DNA from: Candidatus Heimdallarchaeota archaeon
GTDB lineage: Archaea > Asgardarchaeota > Heimdallarchaeia > Heimdallarchaeales > Heimdallarchaeaceae
Assembly (NCBI GenBank): GCA_016840095.1
Contig: JAEOSZ010000024.1
Location: 1 to 64,000 of the forward strand
Direction: 5' to 3'
DNA length: 64,000 nt
Positions 2,650-14,390 of this stretch are shown piece by piece (positions within the stretch are counted from its first letter, which is position 1; each line of letters opens with the position of its first letter). The notes beneath the pieces are model-generated. The model was not told where the DNA came from, did not search any database, and saw only the letters and a list, made by a program, of their open reading frames with translations. The position numbers and the translations under genes are program-made.

Positions 2650-4059
2650 CTAAACAATCTTTGTTAACAGAGGATTTCTTTTCAAAGCTAATTCAGTTGC
2701 TTTGTTAACAAAACTTGCAGGAAATCCTGAATGCTCAAGCAAATTCTTGAACAAAACTTCAGCTTGCTCCTTATCATATAATGAAAACGAAGTAATAATA
2801 TATGACATTGAAACGAGTTTTCTTAATTCATTGAAAACTACAACGGATGCCTTCTCTAGTTGTTGATCTTTCTGTTTTTCGATAATTGATACAAAATGAT
2901 TACTTGTTTTAAATCCTTTAATATCCCCATCTATTAGGTTGATTATTGTTGCTTCTTTTACGAATTTTCCTTTAGATTTTAACTTCTCAAATTGAGATAG
3001 AGACATCCCATAAATGCCTGTATTAAGTATCTGATTATCACCTATAATGTCAAAATCTTCATCCGCCCATTGGATTATCTCTGAAACGATATGTTGATTG
3101 AATATTGATAATGTATCAATAACCAATCTTGTAGTCAGTTTATCCCCAATTACTAATACAGTTTCATTTACAATAACAGGATAGAGAATAGATTCAAGTT
3201 TGCCATCAACTGCATTATTGAGAAAAGCTAATGAAAGATCTTCAACTTCAACAGATGAAAAATAATTTCCAGAATCCTCAATGTTTTGAATTATGTCCAG
3301 AATTTCAAGCATTTCAAACTGAGAATCTTGCTCTGCTAGAATTTTGATTTTTTCAGAAATTAGTGGAAATATTCTAAACGCAATGTAATCAAGTTCTCTA
3401 GGAAACTTCAGAATGCCTAATATTGCTTGAGCTCCTTTTGAATCAATAACAACTAGTGCAGAGTGTTTTTTCTCTGGTGCTAGAAGAAGAATGCAAGCTA
3501 GCTTTTCCTGAAATTCTTGATTTAAATCATACTTCTGTAACATATTCAAAATTTCTACAGCATCCTCCTTTTTACCAACTGTTTCAATTATTTCGAAGTC
3601 AGATTCATCAAATCTGATAATACTAAAAATAAGAGGTTCAGCATCTCTTAGTGGATTCTTTGCAAAGAAAAGTGGAAGGTTGTAGATATCATGAAGTATG
3701 TGTTCCAAAATTAATTCAGCTTCACCTTCAGTGAGTAGATTTTCATCTTTCTCAAAGAGCATAGGTTCAGCACTCAAACGAATCTGTTCCATAATTTGTG
3801 TAAGCTGTTTATCTGAGAAGAGAGTCTCTTCAACTCTTGTTTCTATAATGAATATAAAATCTAAAACTTGCACAAATGAGATGTTTTTATCATGATAAGA
3901 TATAGATTGAAGTTCTTGTCTATGAACTTCTTTAGCAAAAGTAATGATGGCACTAATGAGACTTGTAGCAAGTATTTGCTGTGTTTCTGCATAAACCTCT
4001 GGTTTTGAAGCCAACAAGATTCCTGAAGAAGTTACCAAAGAAATTTGTAAGCTTCGCAT
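2650..4059 (-). CDS. Longin + DENN-like domain protein (paralogue A)
   Basis: N-terminal longin pattern (SGILLAS...LISAIITFAKEV...ELQSISYHDKNISFV). C-terminal ILYPVIVNETVLVIGDKLTTRLVIDTLSIF resembles the cDENN core. Clear paralogue of 4913-6310. Confidence 0.6.
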   Translation of the reverse strand: MRSLQISLVTSSGILLASKPEVYAETQQILATSLISAIITFAKEVHRQELQSISYHDKNISFVQVLDFIFIIETRVEETLFSDKQLTQIMEQIRLSAEPMLFEKDENLLTEGEAELILEHILHDIYNLPLFFAKNPLRDAEPLIFSIIRFDESDFEIIETVGKKEDAVEILNMLQKYDLNQEFQEKLACILLLAPEKKHSALVVIDSKGAQAILGILKFPRELDYIAFRIFPLISEKIKILAEQDSQFEMLEILDIIQNIEDSGNYFSSVEVEDLSLAFLNNAVDGKLESILYPVIVNETVLVIGDKLTTRLVIDTLSIFNQHIVSEIIQWADEDFDIIGDNQILNTGIYGMSLSQFEKLKSKGKFVKEATIINLIDGDIKGFKTSNHFVSIIEKQKDQQLEKASVVVFNELRKLVSMSYIITSFSLYDKEQAEVLFKNLLEHSGFPASFVNKATELALKRNPLLTKIV

Positions 4060-4140
4060 ACTATAGAAAGAGTTTATCTCCCTTAAGTAAATTTCTTTAG
4101 TGGAAAAGGAATATTAATGTACGAAGAGTTGATTAAATAG

Positions 4141-4905
4141 ATGAAAGAAGAAATAATCCTTTACCAGAAATTAACTCATAGAGCTTGGGCTGCTAAAGAA
4201 ACCATCAATCACAATGGATGGTTAGTTAGATTATCAGAGGGAGTTACAAATCGTGTAAATAGCGTTCTTCCTCTTGTATATCATGGTCATGGGGATAATC
4301 TTGAATCAGATATCAATCTTGTTGAAAAAATGTATAAAGAAAATAACCTTCCTTTAGTGTTTCAAATTCCTGATTATGTTGAACCTTCAAACTTGGTTGA
4401 GTTTCTTGAGAATATTGGATTTGAGAGTTTTAGTGAAACTGCTGTTATGAGTAGAGAAGTTAATCAAGAACAAGATACATTAATCAATGATTCATTTGAT
4501 TACAAATTTGAAAAAGATGCTTCTGAACATTGGTTTAAAACTTTACAAAGAATAAACAAAATAGATAACTATAGACTTGAAGCTATAAGAAAAATCATTT
4601 CACGAACTTCAAATTCTAAAGTAACCTGCTCAGTCAATATCAATAATAGAACCACAGGAATAGTGTTAGGGGTTATTGAAAGACCATTCATGGGGATATA
4701 TGATTTATTAGTAGACCCAGATTATAGAAGAAAGGGAATAGGTGAATTCATCATGAAGAAAATGTTGCTTCACGCTTATGAAAGCAATTTGAGCACAATT
4801 TATCTTCAAGTTGAAGTAAAAAATCTTCCAGCTGTTAAATTGTACAAGAAACTTAATTTTCAAGAGCTGTTCAAGTATAGATATATGAAAAGAAAGAGAG
4901 AGTAA
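4141..4905 (+). CDS. GNAT family N-acetyltransferase
   Basis: Motif A VDPDYRRKGIG, LYLQV...NLPAVKLYKKLNF; N-terminal GVTNRVNSV typical of this GNAT subfamily. Confidence 0.9.
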   Translation: MKEEIILYQKLTHRAWAAKETINHNGWLVRLSEGVTNRVNSVLPLVYHGHGDNLESDINLVEKMYKENNLPLVFQIPDYVEPSNLVEFLENIGFESFSETAVMSREVNQEQDTLINDSFDYKFEKDASEHWFKTLQRINKIDNYRLEAIRKIISRTSNSKVTCSVNINNRTTGIVLGVIERPFMGIYDLLVDPDYRRKGIGEFIMKKMLLHAYESNLSTIYLQVEVKNLPAVKLYKKLNFQELFKYRYMKRKRE

Positions 4906-4912
4906 CTCTATT

Positions 4913-6310
4913 CTAAACCAAGTAATCAATTAAAGGATTTATGTTTACTGCAAGTACAACAGCTTTCTTAAAGAAACTAGCTACATTGCCGCTTGCCGAT
5001 GAAAGACCCTTAAGTTTACTTTTGGCTTTTTCTTTATCAAAAAGAGCTAAAGAAGTTAATTCGAGACTTAGATTTACTAGTTTCTCTAAATCGTGTACGA
5101 TTTTGGTTACAACTTCAGCTATCGAAAGACGTTTGACCGTATCAAATAGTTTTTTGAAATGTGTGCTTGAATTTTCTCCATTCACTCTACTAGCTTCAAG
5201 ATTAATATTGGTTTCAGATGTGGATATTTGACCATCTTCTAACAGTTTGTTATATAATGAGGACGACATTCCACATAGTCTTGCATGTAACACACATTTA
5301 CCATTTTTTGACATGTCTTCTTCATTTATCCAAGGATTAACAGAAGTTTGTAAATGTTGAGTAAAAATGGATAACGAGTCAATAACTAATTTGACTGTAG
5401 GTTTATCTCCCACAATATAAATTGGTTCTCCAACAATTGCTGAATATATGGCTTTTTCAAAATTCTTACTGATTGTTCTATCCAAAAATGTAGGAGAGAG
5501 ATCTTCTAAATTCAATTTTGATAATCTATTACCTGGATCATCGAGTTCAATTAGACCATTAAGAATTTCCTGCATGTTTTTATCTTTTCCGAGATTCTCT
5601 AGTTCATTATTCAGAAGATTGTGAAGTCTAAACAATACTAGATTCATACTTTGAGGGAACTTTAAAACACCGACTTTGGATACATTTCCTAAAGATTCTA
5701 CAACAGTATATGCAATGCTTTTCTCATCTTCAAGAGAGGTTAGTAACCCACCAATTTTATCTTTATATCTTTCATTTGCCTTTAGATTATCTAACATCAG
5801 AGCAATCATTGGAATATGTGATCCTGAACCTACTTTGTCTTTTATTTCCCAGCCTTTATCTGAATGAATAATTGTGAAGTAAGAAATATCTGCAGTTTTC
5901 AATGGTTGTTCTGAAATGGATAGATTCAGAAGTTGTATATCTTGAAGACACCTATCTAGGATTATTGAAGCTTCACCTTCTGTTATAGCATTAGGATCAG
6001 CTCCATCCAAAAGAGGACCTGTACATGCTTTTAATTTTTCCAACAATTGATTCAAAAATTGCTCTGTTAAATTAGATTCTTCATCTATGGTTTCAAGTAT
6101 AAGAACAAAATCATGAACTCGAATAAAAGAAACTGTTCTGTCGTGATAAGATATCGATTGTAATTCTCTGTGATGTACCTCTTTTGAAAAAGAAATTAAA
6201 GCTGTCATTAAACCAGTAGCTAGAATCTGTCTTGTGTCGTCTACAGCTTCAGGTTTTGAAGCTAGTAGTATTCCAGTTGATGTTACAAGAGATATCTTAA
6301 TGTTTAGCAT
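4913..6310 (-). CDS. Longin + DENN-like domain protein (paralogue B)
   Basis: Longin pattern TGILLAS...LATGLMTALISFSKEV...ELQSISYHDRTVSFI; AIYSAIVGEPIYIVGDKPTVKLVIDSLSIF cDENN-like segment. Confidence 0.6.
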   Translation of the reverse strand: MLNIKISLVTSTGILLASKPEAVDDTRQILATGLMTALISFSKEVHHRELQSISYHDRTVSFIRVHDFVLILETIDEESNLTEQFLNQLLEKLKACTGPLLDGADPNAITEGEASIILDRCLQDIQLLNLSISEQPLKTADISYFTIIHSDKGWEIKDKVGSGSHIPMIALMLDNLKANERYKDKIGGLLTSLEDEKSIAYTVVESLGNVSKVGVLKFPQSMNLVLFRLHNLLNNELENLGKDKNMQEILNGLIELDDPGNRLSKLNLEDLSPTFLDRTISKNFEKAIYSAIVGEPIYIVGDKPTVKLVIDSLSIFTQHLQTSVNPWINEEDMSKNGKCVLHARLCGMSSSLYNKLLEDGQISTSETNINLEASRVNGENSSTHFKKLFDTVKRLSIAEVVTKIVHDLEKLVNLSLELTSLALFDKEKAKSKLKGLSSASGNVASFFKKAVVLAVNINPLIDYLV

Positions 6311-6391
6311 CTATTCATCCCTTCTAAAAGCTATATAAGAAAATTTCTTTTGGTCTATATTATGAAAAATGTGAAAAAAATTGAGATAAGG

Positions 6392-7249
6392 TTATCTCCT
6401 CTTCTCTTGATTTCTCTTATCTCTGATGATATCTAGAACTTCTGGTGTAATTGTTGAATATCCCATTTCTTTTGCTTGTTCGACTATTTGAGTCATAGCT
6501 CTTTTTAGAAATACTCTGGGTATAGCTACAATTCTCTCACAAGCTTCATCTGTCCAGAATACTTCAGGATCAAGTCTATCAGCTTGATATCTTACAGTAT
6601 CTATGTCAACACCTTTTCCTTTAGGTAGAGGTTCTTTATATGGTGCTTTATGTTCAGCGAACCAGAAATATTGATTATCTCTGTAACCATAATCTATTGG
6701 CAAACTTGGAAACTTTCCGTCTCCATTGACTAAAGACTTATACCAGTTAGGTTTTATCAAAATCTTATCAATTCTTAACAAGTAATGAGATTCGTCTTCT
6801 CTTCCTTTGTATCTAAAAATATCTTCATTGTCATCCCAAGTACAGACTATAGATTGAATAGATTCACCAATAATTGGAGGAACAACACCGTTCTCCTCAC
6901 CATCTACAGGTATTAAAGTAAAGATGCTATCATCAAGTTTCTCTTCTGCTGTTTGTCCTGGAAATCCTAAACGAACGGTATTTTTTAGAATCTTTTTGTT
7001 ATAAGGTATGAAATTTAGTACAGCCTTTTTGGTTCTCTGTATATTCATTGATGTATTACTGTCAACTCGAGATATAAGCATCATAGCATGTTTATCTGCT
7101 ATTCCAAACGGAAAAACTAGTGAGTACGGACCTATGTTTACTGCTCCAGATTCAGAATAAGTTGTTACTAATACAACTGGCATTGGATAAAAGGACGAGG
7201 TTTGATAGAAATTATCTAACACTCGTATTTCTTCGAATTTGTGTTTCAT
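6392..7249 (-). CDS. Flavin reductase-like (DIM6/NTAB) protein fused to a C-terminal PCP_red-like domain
   Basis: PMPVVLVTT...NIGPYS flavin-reductase motif; C-terminal WTDEACERIVAIPRVFLKRAM...AKEMGYSTITPEVL matches the PCP_red helical domain pattern. Confidence 0.75.
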   Translation of the reverse strand: MKHKFEEIRVLDNFYQTSSFYPMPVVLVTTYSESGAVNIGPYSLVFPFGIADKHAMMLISRVDSNTSMNIQRTKKAVLNFIPYNKKILKNTVRLGFPGQTAEEKLDDSIFTLIPVDGEENGVVPPIIGESIQSIVCTWDDNEDIFRYKGREDESHYLLRIDKILIKPNWYKSLVNGDGKFPSLPIDYGYRDNQYFWFAEHKAPYKEPLPKGKGVDIDTVRYQADRLDPEVFWTDEACERIVAIPRVFLKRAMTQIVEQAKEMGYSTITPEVLDIIRDKRNQEKRR

Positions 7250-7254
7250 TATTT

Positions 7255-8118
7255 TCAGCTCTTAGCTATTTGTTGGTATTGTATCTCAAACCAAGATCTT
7301 TTTCGTATCATCTTCCTGAACCATGTTGGCATTATCCATCCTAAGTACATTAGAACATAAGCACCAGCAAAAGATAGGGCTCTTAATGCTGCAATAGTCA
7401 TCATCAAGGCAGGAATAGTTGCTAATTGTGCATCAAATGCAGATAACATTCCTCCAAGCAAATATAATATTGTTCCAAGCCCAATTGTTTGTAGTCCTCT
7501 TTTTCTTACTGGTTGATCAGATTTTCTGGATAATCTCCATGCTCTCCAACCAATTCTTCCTGTAACATAGATTGAAACAATTATCTGTACTAATTGAATA
7601 ACTAAGTAATAGGATACAGTAAATAGTTGAGGTGTAATACTAACTGCCTCTGAAAAGAACAGAGGATTAACATATAAGTCATCTAGCAACAACGAGTATA
7701 CTGGTGAAGATGCAAAAACATCGTACCCAACAAGTGCAGTTGCCATTCCAAAGAAGAACATTAAGAAAGCAAAAATGAAAATCCTAACAATCTCATTATC
7801 TTTCAAAATGTGTCTGCAAGCAAAAATATAGAGAAAGCCAAAAGCAGGAAGAAGCATCAATGGTCCTAATGCTGCAAGCAAATAAGTTAACTCATTAATT
7901 ACTGCTCCATTAAAAATGAATGATATCCTATATGCAATACTTACTGCTGAAGTCGCTGAAAAGAAGATATAGGCAAAAAGGAGCATGAAAGTTCCAATAG
8001 TTCTTTTCCTAAAGAAATTGACTAGTAAGAAAATCACCAAAGTAAAACTGAATAAGAAATTGATTATTGATGTAATCATGAGAAAATAAGTTGAAGTATC
8101 TAAAACTGGAATAGCCAC
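7255..8118 (-). CDS. Seven-transmembrane protein, receptor-like, no fused output domain
   Basis: Seven hydrophobic segments; basic loop between TM5 and TM6 (RLSRKSDQPVRKRG); C-terminal YLGWIMPTWFRK amphipathic tail. GTG start 5 nt after the GTPase stop, with GGTGA SD overlapping that stop. Confidence 0.7.
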   Translation of the reverse strand: MAIPVLDTSTYFLMITSIINFLFSFTLVIFLLVNFFRKRTIGTFMLLFAYIFFSATSAVSIAYRISFIFNGAVINELTYLLAALGPLMLLPAFGFLYIFACRHILKDNEIVRIFIFAFLMFFFGMATALVGYDVFASSPVYSLLLDDLYVNPLFFSEAVSITPQLFTVSYYLVIQLVQIIVSIYVTGRIGWRAWRLSRKSDQPVRKRGLQTIGLGTILYLLGGMLSAFDAQLATIPALMMTIAALRALSFAGAYVLMYLGWIMPTWFRKMIRKRSWFEIQYQQIAKS

Positions 8119-8123
8119 TTATT

Positions 8124-8651
8124 TCACCCCATGAACTCTTCTACAAACCATTTGAAAGCGTCAAAAATCCCTTCTCCTGTCTTTGCAGATGTTTCGAAAA
8201 CTGCCCATTTAAATGGCAAATCTAGTAAGTTGAATTCTTCAATAAACTGAGTTTTTTCAATAACATCAGTAACATCACTTTTGTTAAGCAGTACTAAGAT
8301 ATTAAGCTCGTTTCCAAGCTGTGCACTTACTGTTTGTTGAAAGACATTTTTAGCTTCTTCGAATCTCATTGCATTGGATCTATCAACTACAAATACTATT
8401 CCATCAGATTTCTCATTTATGCTATGCCACATATTTCGGAAATCTTCCTGACCAGCTAAATCAAATACATTGATTTGTAGATTAGGTAAATGCAAAGTTT
8501 CTCTGTTAACACCCATAGTAGGTGTTGTTTCTACGAATTCTCCTGTTTCCAAGTATCGTAATATTGTTGTTTTTCCAGCATCATCTAAACCACATATGGT
8601 TATATCAGCATGCTTGGATTTGCTTTTGAATAAGTTACGTAAGAATGACAT
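8124..8651 (-). CDS. Arf-related small GTPase (Asgard ArfR-like)
   Basis: G1 GLDDAGKTT, G2 TTPTMG, G3 FDLAGQ followed by FRNMW, G4 NKSD, G5 SAK; N-terminal amphipathic MSFLRNLF. Confidence 0.9.
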   Translation of the reverse strand: MSFLRNLFKSKSKHADITICGLDDAGKTTILRYLETGEFVETTPTMGVNRETLHLPNLQINVFDLAGQEDFRNMWHSINEKSDGIVFVVDRSNAMRFEEAKNVFQQTVSAQLGNELNILVLLNKSDVTDVIEKTQFIEEFNLLDLPFKWAVFETSAKTGEGIFDAFKWFVEEFMG

Positions 8652-8663
8652 CTCTTTCCCTCA

Positions 8664-9158
8664 TTAATCCCATAAGTCATCAGATAATTTTTCAATAGCA
8701 TTTCCATTTGGATCTTGACTCTGTTTTGGAAAATCAAATGTTATGGTTGAAGTCGAAGTAATTTCAATTTTGAAAGTACCTTTATTGAAGCCTTTGTATA
8801 GTTTCGGTAAAATCTCTTGAAGTGTTCCTGTTGAGAGAAGGTCTTTCTTCTCTAACTCTGTTATCACCCAAGAAAACACCTGCTTTATGGCGTTTGAGTC
8901 ATAATTGGTAGAGTCGAATACAGCTACTAAAGAGGCTAGATTATCTCTTTGCTCTGCAGAAGGAATTCTAAAGATGTAGCTAGTAAGATTCAGATTGTTG
9001 AAAGTTGTTGAAGCAAAATCCCCAGGACTTGATCCCATAGGAATGGTTTTGTAAACTAGCTGATTCATCGAATCAGCTGGTATGACATCGGGAAAAGTTT
9101 TGACTAATTCTAATCCCCTAGTGCCCATATTGATTAGACATAAACTTAACGGTTTCAT
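8664..9158 (-). CDS. Stand-alone uDENN/longin-like protein, putative regulator of the adjacent GTPase
   Basis: Likely start ATG 9158 (GGGG SD) rather than 9254. The segments GLELVKTFP and YIFRIPSAEQRDNLASLVAVFD recall NPRL2/FLCN/SMCR8 longin domains. Stop is 12 nt before the GTPase start. Confidence 0.55.
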   Translation of the reverse strand: MKPLSLCLINMGTRGLELVKTFPDVIPADSMNQLVYKTIPMGSSPGDFASTTFNNLNLTSYIFRIPSAEQRDNLASLVAVFDSTNYDSNAIKQVFSWVITELEKKDLLSTGTLQEILPKLYKGFNKGTFKIEITSTSTITFDFPKQSQDPNGNAIEKLSDDLWD

Positions 9159-9416
9159 AAATATCCCCTTGTCTCTTACATTTGTTAGAACTTTAAATAT
9201 GTTTTCAAAACTGCAAACTCCCGTTTCTAAAGGTTTTATCCGCGGATTATGCAAAATTTGATGTGTGTAAAAATATGCACACCGACAAATAACTGAACGG
9301 TGTTCATTTTAAGAAGGATTCAATAAAAACATCCATATTTACTTAGTTAACATTCTAGTCAATTAACAATAAGATATAGAAATAGTTGCTTTCAAATTCA
9401 TTTTAGTTGAAAATAT

Positions 9417-9438: not shown

Positions 9439-10812
9439 TCACCCTGAAATTGTATGATTCATGAAAGTCATAGTCGGAGCATCTAGTGGATATCCTGATC
9501 TTTCTCTATCAGAACCAATTTCTTTGATTTCCATTAGAGTTTTCTTATGGTTTCCTGCAATACTTACTGCTTTCAATGGATGTGCTATCTCTCCGTTTAA
9601 GATCAGAAAAGAGTTAGTTGAAGAAACACTGAAATCCCCAGTAATTGGATTTTCGGTACCAAGACCAATGGGTGTATCTGTTACTAGTATTCCTTTCTCT
9701 AATTCTTCGATTTGCTCATCTAGGTTTTTACCTACGTTTTCGATAACCAGCTGATTCAGTCCTGAAATTGGGATGCTTTCAAAAGGAATTCCTCCAGGAG
9801 CTTGTCTCTGAGCATTACCTGTAGATTTTCCTCCTGCTGCTTGACCATACATTCTGTTAAACAAGAAAGATTTTAGAACTCCATTTTCTATCACAGTTGT
9901 TTTTCCTTTTGGTGTTCCTTCAGAATCTATTTTATGTGTACTGAAATGTTCAGGATTGACTGCATCATCAATCAGATTAAAATCTTTAATAGCTATCTGC
10001 TCATCTAATTTATCAATCCAAGGATTCCTCTTTTCTACATATGTTGTACCTGAAGTTCCTATCATAAATGGAAAGAACAGAAATGCAGCAGCAATACGAT
10101 TTTCCCAGATAGTTGGTAGTACTTCACTTCCCTCAAAAGCTTTTGAACCCAATCCAGCTATTGCTTTATCATATCCAAGTTTACCTATACTGCTAATATC
10201 GGGTATTTTTCTACCAGATTCTCCTTGACTGCCAGTTTTTCGATCTCCATCACCCATAGCAACTACATATGAGAATGCAGTATAGCCTGTAGCTAAAGTA
10301 GCAGCTAAACAACCTTCAGTAGTACCTACTGCATAACCAACAGAATTACGGTTAGCACCAACATAAGTTGATACAATTCGAGTATCCTCTCTATCAATTT
10401 GCTTAGAAATTTCATCACAATGTTCAGAAAGAGCAGTTGCATCTAGATTTAGAATTTCAGGATCAAGAATCCCTTCTTTTGAATATTCTCCACCTGTCGC
10501 AAAACCCATAAACATAGGATTTTCAGGACTCACTTTCGCCATGGTGTAAGCTTTACTTAAGGCATCTTTTATAGAATCATCTGCAAACCCAGTACAACTA
10601 GAGAAACCTAACTTTTTCCCATCTGCAACTTGTATTCCTACTCCTTGAACAACACCATCTCTGCTATCAATTTTGCCATTGTTATCAGACACATTTGTCA
10701 AAGCTTGATTATAGACATATACCTCAGCAGAAGGTATGCCAAGATCTCTAGAGAACTTAAGTGCAGAATCTGCAACTTGTAAAATTTTATCGCGTAAATC
10801 CTCAAATGACAT
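9439..10812 (-). CDS. pmbA: TldE/PmbA family protein
   Basis: DSEG, IENGVL, STGNA and NPITGDFS motifs; no HExxxH; 1-nt overlap with tldD. Confidence 0.88.
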   Translation of the reverse strand: MSFEDLRDKILQVADSALKFSRDLGIPSAEVYVYNQALTNVSDNNGKIDSRDGVVQGVGIQVADGKKLGFSSCTGFADDSIKDALSKAYTMAKVSPENPMFMGFATGGEYSKEGILDPEILNLDATALSEHCDEISKQIDREDTRIVSTYVGANRNSVGYAVGTTEGCLAATLATGYTAFSYVVAMGDGDRKTGSQGESGRKIPDISSIGKLGYDKAIAGLGSKAFEGSEVLPTIWENRIAAAFLFFPFMIGTSGTTYVEKRNPWIDKLDEQIAIKDFNLIDDAVNPEHFSTHKIDSEGTPKGKTTVIENGVLKSFLFNRMYGQAAGGKSTGNAQRQAPGGIPFESIPISGLNQLVIENVGKNLDEQIEELEKGILVTDTPIGLGTENPITGDFSVSSTNSFLILNGEIAHPLKAVSIAGNHKKTLMEIKEIGSDRERSGYPLDAPTMTFMNHTISG

Positions 10813-12230
10813 TATTGAGCACCTCCAACTTGAACTTGATCCATAATCACCTCAGGACCACCAGTTCCAACAGGAAGGGGAAATTGTCCACCTTTGCCAC
10901 AACCACCAAAATAGTTTCCACGTAGTTGAATATTCTTTGTTGTACCTTCTACATATTTTAATAATTCAAGTATGTTTCCTGAAAGTGCAGTTGTTTTGAA
11001 TGGTTTTGTCAGTTCCCCATTTTCAATTAGATATCCTCTGTTACAGTTAAACATGAAATTACCATCCATTGTGACTTGTCCTCCAGACCAACTTACAGCA
11101 TAGATACCATTGTCAACTAACTCGATTGCTTCTTCCAAAGTTAAATCTCCTTTCTCAAAATACGTATTCTTCATCCTAGGAATGGGATTGTACATGAAGT
11201 TAATTCCTACACTGTTACCAGTTGTTTCAGCATTTAGCTTATTAGCAGTCCCTCTGTCATGTAGGTAACCTTTCAAAATGCCTTTTTCAACTAATACAGT
11301 TCTAGAAGTTTTAGTTCCTTGATCGTCATAAGGGAAATACCATCCTCCATAAGGTGTTATTCCTTCATCAATTATTGTTACATGCTCACTTCCTAACTCC
11401 TCACCAACTCTATCAGCAATTGGAGACATTCCTGAAACTACAAAATCTCCTTCAGATAAGTGGCCAAAAGATTCATGAACCACCACACCTCCCATACTAG
11501 GTGAAACTAGAGTTTTCACTTTTCCAGTAGGTGCATTTACAGCATCTAAAAGTTCTTTTGTCCATTTTCCAGCATTAGCTCCAACATTCTCAGGTGTCCA
11601 TCTCTCTTTATCGAAGAACTCTAATCCCATTGATTGTCCCATACCATCTGAAGCTGTAGCTTGTTTTCCATTCTCCATTACAACAGCATTTAATCTCATA
11701 TCCACAACCATAGGAGTCCAGAAAATCTCAGAACCATCTGAGTTTACAAAATATTTCTCACCATAAAATTCACCATATTGAGCTTGGGTACTACTAGCAT
11801 CAACATTTTCTTTAACTGCGGCTACACCTCGTTTCAGTAATTCTAGTTTATCGGTAAATTCGAAATCCTTTGGATGTTTCTTAACTTGTAAAATAGCTTT
11901 ATCCTTTATAGCAGGTCTCTTATCAAATTCTAATTTCATCTTGTTTCTAGGTTCTGTTGAAACAGCGAGTTTCACTGCACCTTGAGTAGCTTTTTTTACA
12001 GCATCAACTATTAATTCAGGAGTAAAAGAAAAACCAGGAGTACCTTTGTAATAAGCCATAACTCCTATTCCTCTTCTTCTTTTTGATGAAGATTCTTTTA
12101 CGATATCATTTGTCAAGTTTATACTTGTTAACTGATAATCATCATATCTAGCATCAATGAAGACTCCATCTGTTTTCTCACCTTCTTCTACAGCTTTTTG
12201 TAGAAGATCAAAAATAAATTCTTCACTCAT
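10812..12230 (-). CDS. tldD: TldD family metalloprotease
   Basis: HESFGHLSEGD zinc motif, YDDQG, RMKNTY, CGKGGQ.PVG.GGP C-terminal motif. Confidence 0.93.
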   Translation of the reverse strand: MSEEFIFDLLQKAVEEGEKTDGVFIDARYDDYQLTSINLTNDIVKESSSKRRRGIGVMAYYKGTPGFSFTPELIVDAVKKATQGAVKLAVSTEPRNKMKLEFDKRPAIKDKAILQVKKHPKDFEFTDKLELLKRGVAAVKENVDASSTQAQYGEFYGEKYFVNSDGSEIFWTPMVVDMRLNAVVMENGKQATASDGMGQSMGLEFFDKERWTPENVGANAGKWTKELLDAVNAPTGKVKTLVSPSMGGVVVHESFGHLSEGDFVVSGMSPIADRVGEELGSEHVTIIDEGITPYGGWYFPYDDQGTKTSRTVLVEKGILKGYLHDRGTANKLNAETTGNSVGINFMYNPIPRMKNTYFEKGDLTLEEAIELVDNGIYAVSWSGGQVTMDGNFMFNCNRGYLIENGELTKPFKTTALSGNILELLKYVEGTTKNIQLRGNYFGGCGKGGQFPLPVGTGGPEVIMDQVQVGGAQ

Positions 12231-13337: not shown

Positions 13338-14390
13338 TTATTTCTCTTGCTTTAATTTCCTTAGCCATAGAAATTGATCAGATTTGCAATTTGGACATTT
13401 AGAATCTGTTTCTAGCCAAGCAATAATATGGTCTTTGTGAGTATAAACATCGCAACAAGGTGTTTGTACTACAATCTTTTTCTCAGATGGTTTTAAGTCC
13501 AAAAGGCAAACTATACAGATTGGTCTGGGAGATTTACAGCTAGTACAAATGTCTTCAGTTGTTTCAAACGGATCCCCACATTGGTAACAAACGAGTTCTT
13601 CTACTGCAACATCACCAAAGTCCTTTAACATTACGACATCATGTATTAAGTTTGAAAGTTGAAATAAACTAAGTAGTACTTCGGAACTATTGATTGTACC
13701 ATTTATGAAACGTCCATTGAATGAGATTAATTCTAAGTTTTCTTTCATCTCAACCAATAACTCATCAACCTGTTTCTTCTTCAATATTTCCTCATATAAT
13801 ATTGGGTGGTTTGAGAAAAAAGAGTAATAGTTTGAAGACTGAATTTCAGACAATATTTCACCAGAATCTTTCTTGATCATCACTTTCTTAATACTCAAAG
13901 ATATTGGATATTCAAACCTGAGAACTGCTCTTAAGATTATTTCTTCAGATGACTGTACTTCAAGAGAAACTTGATTTAAGAATGCAAATACATTTTCTTC
14001 ATTAAACCCGAAAATGACTCTAGGAAATAAATCATCAGTAATTCTGATATTAACAGCTTCAATAGTTGTAAGAATTGGGTTGAGTTTCTCTTCAATGAAC
14101 TTGATTTTCTCATTTACTAAATCATCTTTTCTTAAAGCTAATACCTTATAGATTCTAGAAGGAGAACCTCTATTTCGTCTTCGTTTAATCCACCAAAAAA
14201 GCTGTATTAAAATGTAGCTAGCAATTAAAGAAGCCAATATTAAAACTGTCAACATATAACCAATCAATTTTTGATGATCAAAATCATAAGAAGCAAAATA
14301 CAAACCAGTAATATAACCAGCAATAAGAAGAAGTAATCCAAAAGTCTTGAAAACTCCTTTCAACCCACTCCTATAGCTTGACCTGATCAT
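13338..14390 (-). CDS. Membrane-anchored zinc-ribbon + RING-finger protein (putative E3 ligase)
   Basis: Two N-terminal TM helices; CYQC..CTSC ribbon, then CIVC-x16-CC-x4-H-x2-H-x3-W-x6-CPNC. Confidence 0.75.
   Translation of the reverse strand: MIRSSYRSGLKGVFKTFGLLLLIAGYITGLYFASYDFDHQKLIGYMLTVLILASLIASYILIQLFWWIKRRRNRGSPSRIYKVLALRKDDLVNEKIKFIEEKLNPILTTIEAVNIRITDDLFPRVIFGFNEENVFAFLNQVSLEVQSSEEIILRAVLRFEYPISLSIKKVMIKKDSGEILSEIQSSNYYSFFSNHPILYEEILKKKQVDELLVEMKENLELISFNGRFINGTINSSEVLLSLFQLSNLIHDVVMLKDFGDVAVEELVCYQCGDPFETTEDICTSCKSPRPICIVCLLDLKPSEKKIVVQTPCCDVYTHKDHIIAWLETDSKCPNCKSDQFLWLRKLKQEK

Follow-up and report, generated by a model that had tools for sequence, protein, structure and literature searches.

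We analysed a window of 64,000 nucleotides from Candidatus Heimdallarchaeota archaeon (positions 1 to 64,000 of the forward strand of contig JAEOSZ010000024.1, assembly GCA_016840095.1; genome G000, contig C145 in our labelling), a member of the Heimdallarchaeaceae placed in family f1, genus g1 of the comparison set. Three consecutive genes on the minus strand of this window encode a small longin-like protein, an Arf-family GTPase and a seven-helix membrane protein (7TM), and together they form a well-supported, conserved and tightly coupled three-gene module, referred to here as the cassette. An initial annotation, made from the letters of the same stretch, had described five co-oriented genes with gaps of 12, 5, 5 and 81 nt, and a second longin-DENN (LD) gene one gene further on, as a self-contained circuit of receptor, G protein and regulators. 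The coordinates of the open reading frames (ORFs) confirm the five minus-strand genes with these gaps, as well as the second LD paralogue (LD_A), which is separated from the first (LD_B) by a GNAT acetyltransferase gene, and all of the ORFs are real genes, conserved homologues existing for each. The cassette and its upstream region are laid out as follows.

9159..9230, minus strand: upstream region of the cassette, from direct reading of the letters
8664..9158, minus strand: NPRL2-like longin of 164 amino acids, candidate GTPase-activating protein (GAP) or other regulator of the adjacent GTPase, from an AlphaFold2 (AF2) model and fold searches
8124..8651, minus strand: Arf-family (ArfR-type) small GTPase of 175 amino acids, from the Pfam Arf match
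7255..8118, minus strand: seven-helix membrane protein (7TM) of 287 amino acids with a GTG start, belonging to no curated family, from an AF2 model

The longin gene starts at the ATG at position 9158 and not at the TTG at 9254, since every homologue begins with MKPxSLCL, and homologues that align from residue 1 support GTG as the start codon of the 7TM gene. A TATA-like element, ATATTTAAA, lies ∼40 nt 5' of the longin ATG and marks a putative promoter upstream of the cassette, with a Shine-Dalgarno-like AAGGGGAT positioned 6–9 nt 5' of the same ATG and a G-rich element of this kind at the equivalent position in relatives. Judged by sequence, the junctions of 12, 5 and 5 nt, from the longin gene to the flavin-reductase-like gene that follows the cassette, would fit one transcript.

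A search of 301 Asgard genomes with LD_B (465 residues) and the small longin-like protein as probes, followed by tblastn on the fetched loci, revealed the same order of longin, ArfR and 7TM genes in genera g1, g4 and g5 of family f1 and in genera g15 and g16 of another Heimdallarchaeial family, f6. Conservation of the gene neighbourhood, which the initial annotation had put forward as a check, thus holds for the three-gene order in two families. The internal junctions of the 21 complete cassettes range from −4 nt (an overlap) to 35 nt, each copy has its own, unrelated flanking genes, and f6 genomes contain up to nine homologues of the small protein each; recurrence of the order in 21 complete cassettes is far beyond chance. 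Trees of the longin, GTPase and 7TM proteins are congruent (patristic r of 0.76–0.89, with 0 of 2000 permutations as high, and 12–15 of 18 splits in common), indicating that the cassette has been duplicated and inherited as a block, with no exchange of its parts. In the GTPase and longin trees the f1 cassette nests among the f6 paralogue lineages (the window against L082/L090 and L097/L081/L088), which could mean that the cassette was passed from one family to the other or that a single old paralogue was retained.

The GTPase matches Pfam Arf over residues 4–172 of its 175 (E 6.1e-42, 143.5 bits), far above the cut-off of 22.3 bits, in agreement with the ArfR label it was first given. The DxxGQ motif is intact and reads FDLAGQ, with the catalytic Gln present, and the protein begins with an N-terminal amphipathic helix, MSFLRNLFKSKSK, in which the pattern MSFLxxLF is kept in all cassettes. 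G000 contains approximately nine strong Arf-type genes, and when 13 further GTPases of this genome were placed in one tree with the 21 cassette GTPases, the latter grouped as a single clade (support 0.75) separate from the 13. Judged by its sequence, the GTPase is a clear member of the Arf family in a clade of its own. Arf proteins also give partial Gα matches in the Pfam search, and Asgard Arf-family GTPases are held to be ancestral to the eukaryotic Arf, Sar and SRβ switches. The Asgard ArfRs bind membranes via their helix when GTP-bound (10.1101/2024.02.28.582541; PMC11914678), and both of these studies describe the native regulators of Asgard Arf proteins as yet to be identified.

The small protein was identified by fold search alone, sequence searches being blank: no Pfam match was found among 29 members of its family, there was no match in NCBIfam, and the family profile matched nothing among the PDB sequences. 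Its AF2 model (pLDDT 81.7, pTM 0.77) displays the strand and helix order of a longin domain, with the topology β2-α-β3-α2. NPRL2 is the top Foldseek match to this model (E 7e-7, TMq 0.71), and VIA-align superposes residues 1–146 of the model on residues 5–162 of NPRL2 with a Z score of 16.2 (146 residues, 3.0 Å), followed by yeast Npr2 (Z of 14), a Lokiarchaeal roadblock-longin protein (12.7), FLCN (10.9) and SMCR8/C9orf72 (∼9.5). The longin-like character originally proposed for this gene is therefore upheld, by a longin fold model with NPRL2 as its closest solved match, and the modelling supports assignment as a longin closest to the GAP longin NPRL2. The loop that precedes strand 5 contains Arg71, which is invariant among the triads (21 of 21) and is also kept in seven of eight dyads (loci with the longin and 7TM genes only) and in all seven distant relatives. 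In the model it occupies the loop that holds the arginine finger of GAP longins; it is a candidate catalytic arginine and may correspond to Arg78 of NPRL2. Gly15, before strand 2, is likewise invariant in the small longins and is followed by Leu or Ile. No significant relation between the small longin and LD families was detected by hhalign (probabilities of 5% and 17%). The distant longin relatives in f14 adjoin Arf-type GTPases of ∼300–340 residues with a C-terminal extension, encoded just upstream (L069, L073, L079), and GTPases of this type also occur on contigs C165, C62, C90, C23 and C22 of G000.

The AF2 model of the 7TM protein (pLDDT 92.1, pTM 0.88) contains seven transmembrane helices (TM1–7), a β-hairpin in the loop between TM4 and TM5, and a basic amphipathic C-terminal helix resembling the helix 8 of G-protein-coupled receptors (GPCRs). 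Mean charges across the family are +2.9 for intracellular loop 1 (ICL1), +5.6 for ICL3 and +4.7 for the tail, with negative outer loops, and this positive-inside distribution indicates an N-out/C-in topology. Conservation is higher on the cytoplasmic side (0.51) than on the outer side (0.31), and the 30 positions with the highest conservation are without exception towards the cytoplasm, in ICL1, the end of TM3, ICL3 and from TM7 through helix 8. Conserved residues include Y97, F99, R102 and D107 at the TM3 end, where the motif CRHIL is found, and R246, Y258, G260, W261, P264 and W266 from TM7 to helix 8, with the motif GWIMPxW at the end of TM7; the outward-facing parts differ between paralogues.

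The top 50 PDB matches to the 7TM model in Foldseek are all GPCRs (TM-scores of 0.40–0.53, E 2.5e-4 to 1e-2). An independent search against representatives (VIA wide) yielded Z values of 12.2–14.9 for GPCRs of every class compared to 12.5 for microbial rhodopsins, values that are common among helical bundles. Because such scores are typical of helical bundles, we read the fold matches as a shared GPCR/rhodopsin-like architecture and not as homology. Indeed, the 7TM protein matches no Pfam family at E values up to 0.1, the 7tm families included, and has none of the GPCR signature motifs DRY, NPxxY and CWxP. What stands of the receptor-like label in the initial annotation is the seven helices, the GPCR-like topology and the GPCR-like predicted fold. 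Assignment as a microbial rhodopsin was rejected, helix 7 (residues 236–262) having no retinal-binding Lys. A profile search of 1.84 billion representatives gathered 49 family members at E < 1e-30, beyond which lay a weak tail of ∼250-residue proteins with no Pfam family and from which no wider family emerged; this tail had sub-threshold NCBIfam matches only (MAB_1171c, MASE3), and one of its members was from Sigynarchaeota. The 7TM protein itself gave a sub-threshold match to a putative transporter family of NCBIfam (E 5.7e-5, 22 bits against a cut-off of 100).

Beyond the cassette, the locus continues with the remaining genes of the initial annotation.

6392..7249, minus strand: flavin-reductase-like protein of 285 amino acids with a PCP_red-like C-terminal domain, from Pfam matches below cut-off
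6311..6391, minus strand: 81-nt gap with a T-run and a conserved AAATTTxxTTATATA element, from the sequence and its relatives
4913..6310, minus strand: LD_B, probable FLCN/SMCR8-type longin-DENN protein of 465 amino acids, from indirect sequence-level evidence
4141..4905, plus strand: GNAT acetyltransferase between the LD paralogues, from Pfam Acetyltransf_1 (E 4.7e-14)
2650..4059, minus strand: LD_A, paralogue of LD_B, 469 amino acids, from 38% identity to LD_B

Several lines of evidence link LD_A and LD_B to folliculin. A precomputed Pfam tag, PF27109 (SMCR8_C in the Atlas), is attached to 14 of 45 members of the LD family, and Atlas feature searches with LD_B and a 37%-identical homologue (P0041) returned FLCN, C9orf72 and SMCR8 clusters at 0.76–0.84, scores that compare features, not structures, and rank as leads only. 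Residues 272–464 of LD_B match Heimdall proteins of 380 amino acids (E 1.4e-9 and 3.3e-9) whose N-terminal parts pass the Pfam Folliculin cut-off. At the N-terminus, Intu_longin_1 is matched in 14 of 24 LD members, in all cases below cut-off (best E 9.8e-4), and the LD family profile found no match among PDB sequences. An architecture of the folliculin/SMCR8 longin-DENN type is probable for both proteins on this evidence, and the longin-DENN label of the initial annotation holds at that strength, with sequence matches linking the C-terminal half to FLCN and with the N-terminal longin matches below cut-off. A tri-longin architecture, as in Mon1/Ccz1, Fuz/Intu or HPS1/HPS4, was not adopted, the C-terminal half being related to FLCN-type proteins. 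Comparison of thirds of the LD alignment by hhalign found no internal repeat, and only the first domain has weak Pfam longin matches. FLCN-like proteins and NPRL2-like longins have already been noted in Heimdall genomes (Liu et al., 10.1101/2020.10.19.343400). The window also encodes, at 13338-14390, a membrane-anchored RING-like protein; in several genomes from both families (L040, L037, L038, L043, L045) such a protein is again found only a few kb from the LD genes.

Both LD paralogues are found in most g1 genomes. The GNAT gene is an insertion of this lineage and is absent from between them in G097 and G151, where the LD genes are adjacent and co-directional, giving a run of six co-directional genes that includes LD_B and LD_A. 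Elsewhere the pair parts company with the cassette: many g1 genomes keep the LD pair alone, no homologue of the small protein is detectable in at least ten LD-bearing genomes of g1 or in the two complete genomes of g3, which likewise carry one or more LD genes, and no f6 cassette examined abuts an LD gene, the nearest lying 6 kb off. In G196 an LD gene is kept and the cassette is gone, and the flavin-reductase remnant left behind indicates that the cassette was deleted there. An AAATTTxxTTATATA element ∼25 nt before the LD_B start (window 6325-6345, minus strand) is conserved in six g1 genomes, including G196, and the 81-nt gap before LD_B also contains a terminator-like T-run. It is probable that LD_B has its own archaeal promoter, comprising a B recognition element (BRE) and TATA box, and the spacing suggests that its transcript may be leaderless or have a short leader.

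The flavin-reductase-like protein matches both of the families named for it in the initial annotation, Pfam Flavin_Reduct (E 5.6e-5) and PCP_red (E 1.2e-4), yet both matches are below the Pfam cut-offs. Its gene is limited to g1, being absent from the g4 and f6 cassettes, and is reduced to a 39-residue ORF in G133 (L033:10301-10420) and G196 (L040:10284-10403). This remnant is the PCP_red-like C-terminal piece (MKKAMTxIVExAKxRGV...DEIRDKRNQEK), equivalent to window 6392-6510, and may encode an independent small protein, or its retention may be due to overlap with signals upstream of LD_B. We class the flavin-reductase gene as accessory, a passenger in the cluster. The self-contained circuit of five or six genes originally proposed is not supported, since the f6 cassettes have no such neighbours, the LD pair outlives the cassette, LD_B has a promoter element of its own, and relatives either lack the flavin-reductase gene or have it in truncated form. 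The LD pair is best read as a neighbouring pair of GTPase regulators, at most facultatively linked to the cassette, and the result in this window limits any claim to that extent: the folliculin-like pair is a neighbour, and not a proven part of the module. On the other side of the cassette, directly upstream, is a TldD/PmbA metallopeptidase pair (window 9439-12230, minus strand), which in relatives is duplicated and often inverted with respect to the cassette, and so lies outside the unit.

We consider it probable, with some reserve, that the functional unit is the three-gene cassette, expressed as one message, in which the NPRL2-like longin, the Arf-family GTPase and the 7TM protein make up a GTPase-longin-7TM membrane switch. 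This proposal builds upon the gene order, its conservation, the folds, the topology and the block duplication, and would add to them co-transcription, a GAP activity and all of the physical contacts. By means of its N-terminal amphipathic helix the GTPase would attach to the membrane and leave it again in a cycle, its dedicated regulator would be the longin, most probably a GAP using Arg71, and the 7TM protein would be the membrane partner, its conserved basic cytoplasmic face docking the longin, the GTPase or both. This would couple the switch to a single membrane protein and perhaps also to whatever the 7TM senses. The contact of longin with 7TM may be the constant one, as the dyads suggest, in an arrangement that would resemble GATOR1 on LYCHOS/GPR155 (PMC11525196; 10.1101/2024.11.21.624772) and C9orf72-SMCR8-WDR41 on PQLC2 (PMC12290439). 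Asgard archaea also contain NPRL2-like longins fused to two-component signalling domains (Liu et al., 10.1101/2020.10.19.343400), which fits a signalling role for such longins.

A number of observations weigh against a longin-regulated switch confined to these three genes. Longins are more often guanine-nucleotide exchange factors (GEFs) or adaptors than GAPs, and eukaryotic GAP longins work as heterodimers, whereas the cassette encodes one longin only. The congruence of the three trees could be obtained from linkage alone and is no proof of contact. A GP motif before the second strand is the proposed mark of eukaryotic GAP longins (PMC12290439); in the small longins Pro is absent after Gly15, leaving the motif only half present, and the distant relatives carry NP or HP at this position. 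In family f1 the cassette is directly upstream of an LD gene in every assessable genome (seven of g1 and one of g4), and a functional tie between cassette and LD pair may exist. Finally, there are seven or eight dyad loci in which the longin adjoins the 7TM gene with no GTPase between them (listed as L087, L091, L092, L095, L063, L064 and L066, all of family f6). The GTPase is therefore not obligatory, and the pattern suggests that the longin, rather than the GTPase, may be the constant partner of the 7TM protein. A divergent Arf-like gene (25% identity, 213–250 residues) lies ∼2 kb from the L087 and L092 dyads on the other strand.

An alternative to the GAP assignment is that the longin acts as a GEF or adaptor, or as an effector of the GTPase in its GTP-bound state, with the cassette targeting the 7TM protein or other cargo to a membrane site. 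Longin and roadblock regulators mostly serve as GEFs or platforms (PMC12290439), the small longins do not have the Pro of the GP motif, and the SRX-SRβ complex is found among the weaker Foldseek matches of the small longin (1nrj, E 0.067). There are also precedents in the SRX longin of SRα, which binds SRβ, in the Ragulator/roadblock GEFs, and in the longin GEFs of the DENN or Mon1-Ccz1 type. However, the GAP subunit NPRL2 is the best match by 3–5 Z units over other longins, and the invariant Arg is found in the very loop where GAP longins hold their arginine finger, and we regard a non-GAP longin as rather unlikely.

The dyads, which retain the longin beside the 7TM gene in the absence of a GTPase, also raise the idea that the 7TM is a transporter, a 'transceptor' or another regulated membrane protein, with the longin as its primary partner and the longin-GTPase pair reporting on it or controlling it. 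NPRL2 being the best structural match of the longin is consistent with such a role, as is the weak NCBIfam match of the 7TM protein to a putative transporter (E 5.7e-5), and eukaryotic precedents are provided by GATOR1-LYCHOS/GPR155, C9orf72-SMCR8-WDR41-PQLC2 and Npr2/3-permeases (PMC11525196, 10.1101/2024.11.21.624772, PMC12290439). Against this, no transporter fold appears in the top 50 structural matches, conservation is concentrated at the cytoplasmic face and not along a pore-like core, and the NCBIfam match reaches 22 bits where 100 are needed. A regulated membrane protein of this kind is, in our view, rather unlikely.

Two bolder proposals give the 7TM a receptor function. In the first, which keeps to the three-gene switch with the NPRL2-like longin as matched GAP, the 7TM of GPCR-like architecture directly controls the adjacent Arf-type GTPase as an exchange factor or receptor-dock; we consider this unlikely. 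If true, it would place a prokaryotic circuit that links a receptor to a G protein and its GAP in the archaea most closely related to eukaryotes, with a bearing on the origins of GPCR/Gα signalling and of lysosomal longin-GAP nutrient sensors. The second is the full circuit of the initial annotation, in which a ligand-activated 7TM receptor is the exchange factor of the GTPase, the longin is the off-switch and the LD proteins are further GEF or GAP regulators, the whole being a precursor or analogue of GPCR/G-protein and FLCN/C9orf72 control. It draws on the GPCR-resembling fold and topology, with the β-hairpin between TM4 and TM5, the tail resembling helix 8 and an Arg conserved where TM3 ends on the cytoplasmic side, on the variable outer parts and conserved cytoplasmic face of the 7TM paralogues, on the partial Gα matches of Arf proteins, and on the f1 cassettes, which always abut an LD gene and are part of six co-directional genes in G097 and G151. 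The fold scores of the 7TM are nevertheless at the level of helical bundles (rhodopsins reach Z 12.5 compared to 14.9 for the best GPCR), with no Pfam 7tm match and neither DRY nor NPxxY. Moreover, no f6 cassette examined abuts an LD gene, with 6 kb to the nearest, the LD pair survives where the cassette is missing, a separate promoter element precedes LD_B, and the longin-7TM dyads have no GTPase; we regard the full circuit as quite unlikely. Adjacency without functional meaning is very improbable: kin keep gene order by descent, which could account for the arrangement within genus g1, but the triad order and its tight or overlapping junctions are kept through at least six old paralogue lineages in two families, and the flanks change completely.

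We found no published description of a longin-ArfR-7TM cassette in the searchable literature, subscription-only papers lying outside the search, and the group that defined GAP-type longins describes their Asgard partners, including the GTPase on which they act, as an open question (PMC12290439). The cassette supplies matched, genome-encoded candidates for the regulators of Asgard Arf proteins, each copy contributing a longin, an Arf-type GTPase and a membrane protein and the copies falling into several diverged sets, and these matched sets open the way to direct biochemical tests of archaeal Arf switches. A GPCR-shaped membrane protein encoded beside a small G protein in a prokaryote bears on the origins of receptor-coupled G-protein signalling and of lysosomal nutrient sensing, making the cassette relevant to eukaryogenesis.

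Comparison with known systems highlights both likenesses and differences. In GATOR1 (NPRL2-NPRL3-DEPDC5), which acts on RagA/B, the NPRL2 longin domain that bears the catalytic arginine is the best match of the cassette longin, a small GTPase of the Arf/Rag-like branch is the candidate substrate, and a GPCR-like 7TM protein, there the lysosomal LYCHOS/GPR155, is the candidate dock. The cassette longin, in contrast, is a single protein of 164 amino acids with no NPRL2 C-terminal domain, NPRL3 partner or DEPDC5, and without the Pro of the GP motif; its GTPase is of Arf and not Rag type, the genes form one putative operon, and there is no detectable sequence homology. The C9orf72-SMCR8-WDR41 complex is similarly a longin-based GAP, for Arf1/5/6, tethered to a 7TM transporter, PQLC2, and the paralogous pair LD_A/LD_B resembles the SMCR8/C9orf72/FLCN architecture. 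The cassette longin differs in having no DENN part, there is no WDR41-like adaptor, and the LD pair is inconsistently linked. Asgard candidates for this complex were found to be devoid of the Arf-contacting regions (Zhu et al., PMC11914678).

Among Asgard systems, the ArfR/AArf proteins (10.1101/2024.02.28.582541; PMC11914678) share with the cassette GTPase the Arf family, the N-terminal amphipathic helix without Gly2 and an occurrence in Heimdallarchaeia. What sets the cassette GTPases apart is a separate clade and a dedicated set of neighbours; Vargova et al. (10.1101/2024.02.28.582541) and Zhu et al. (PMC11914678) described the Asgard Arf proteins and reported no gene-neighbourhood partners. 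In MK-D1, GTPases are generally outside operons with longin or roadblock genes (Tran et al., PMC10933270). The Asgard operon of a LAMTOR1-like roadblock protein, a Rab-like GTPase and a DENN protein (10.1101/2020.10.19.343400) likewise joins a small GTPase to regulators of the roadblock/longin superfamily, although that GTPase is Rab-like, the regulators are roadblock and DENN proteins, and no membrane protein is encoded. In bacteria, the actinobacterial conservons (CvnA-D) and MglA-MglB are operons of a small Ras-superfamily GTPase and a roadblock-type GAP, with a membrane sensor in the conservons, for which a comparison with receptor-G protein systems has long been drawn (PMC13343842, PMC13621833, PMC4316618). 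Their sensor, however, resembles a histidine kinase and is no 7TM protein standing alone, their GTPase is of the MglA/Ras type and not Arf, and their regulator is a roadblock protein in place of an NPRL2-like longin. Compared to eukaryotic GPCR-Gα systems and their regulators of G-protein signalling (RGS), the cassette lacks GPCR motifs and Pfam matches, a helical domain in the GTPase and βγ subunits, and its longin is not an RGS protein, but it too has a 7TM protein of N-out/C-in topology, with a helix-8-like tail and a conserved cytoplasmic face, encoded next to a GTPase of the Arf/Gα branch and a candidate GAP. The cassette thus belongs with the systems that combine a small GTPase, a longin or roadblock regulator and a membrane partner.

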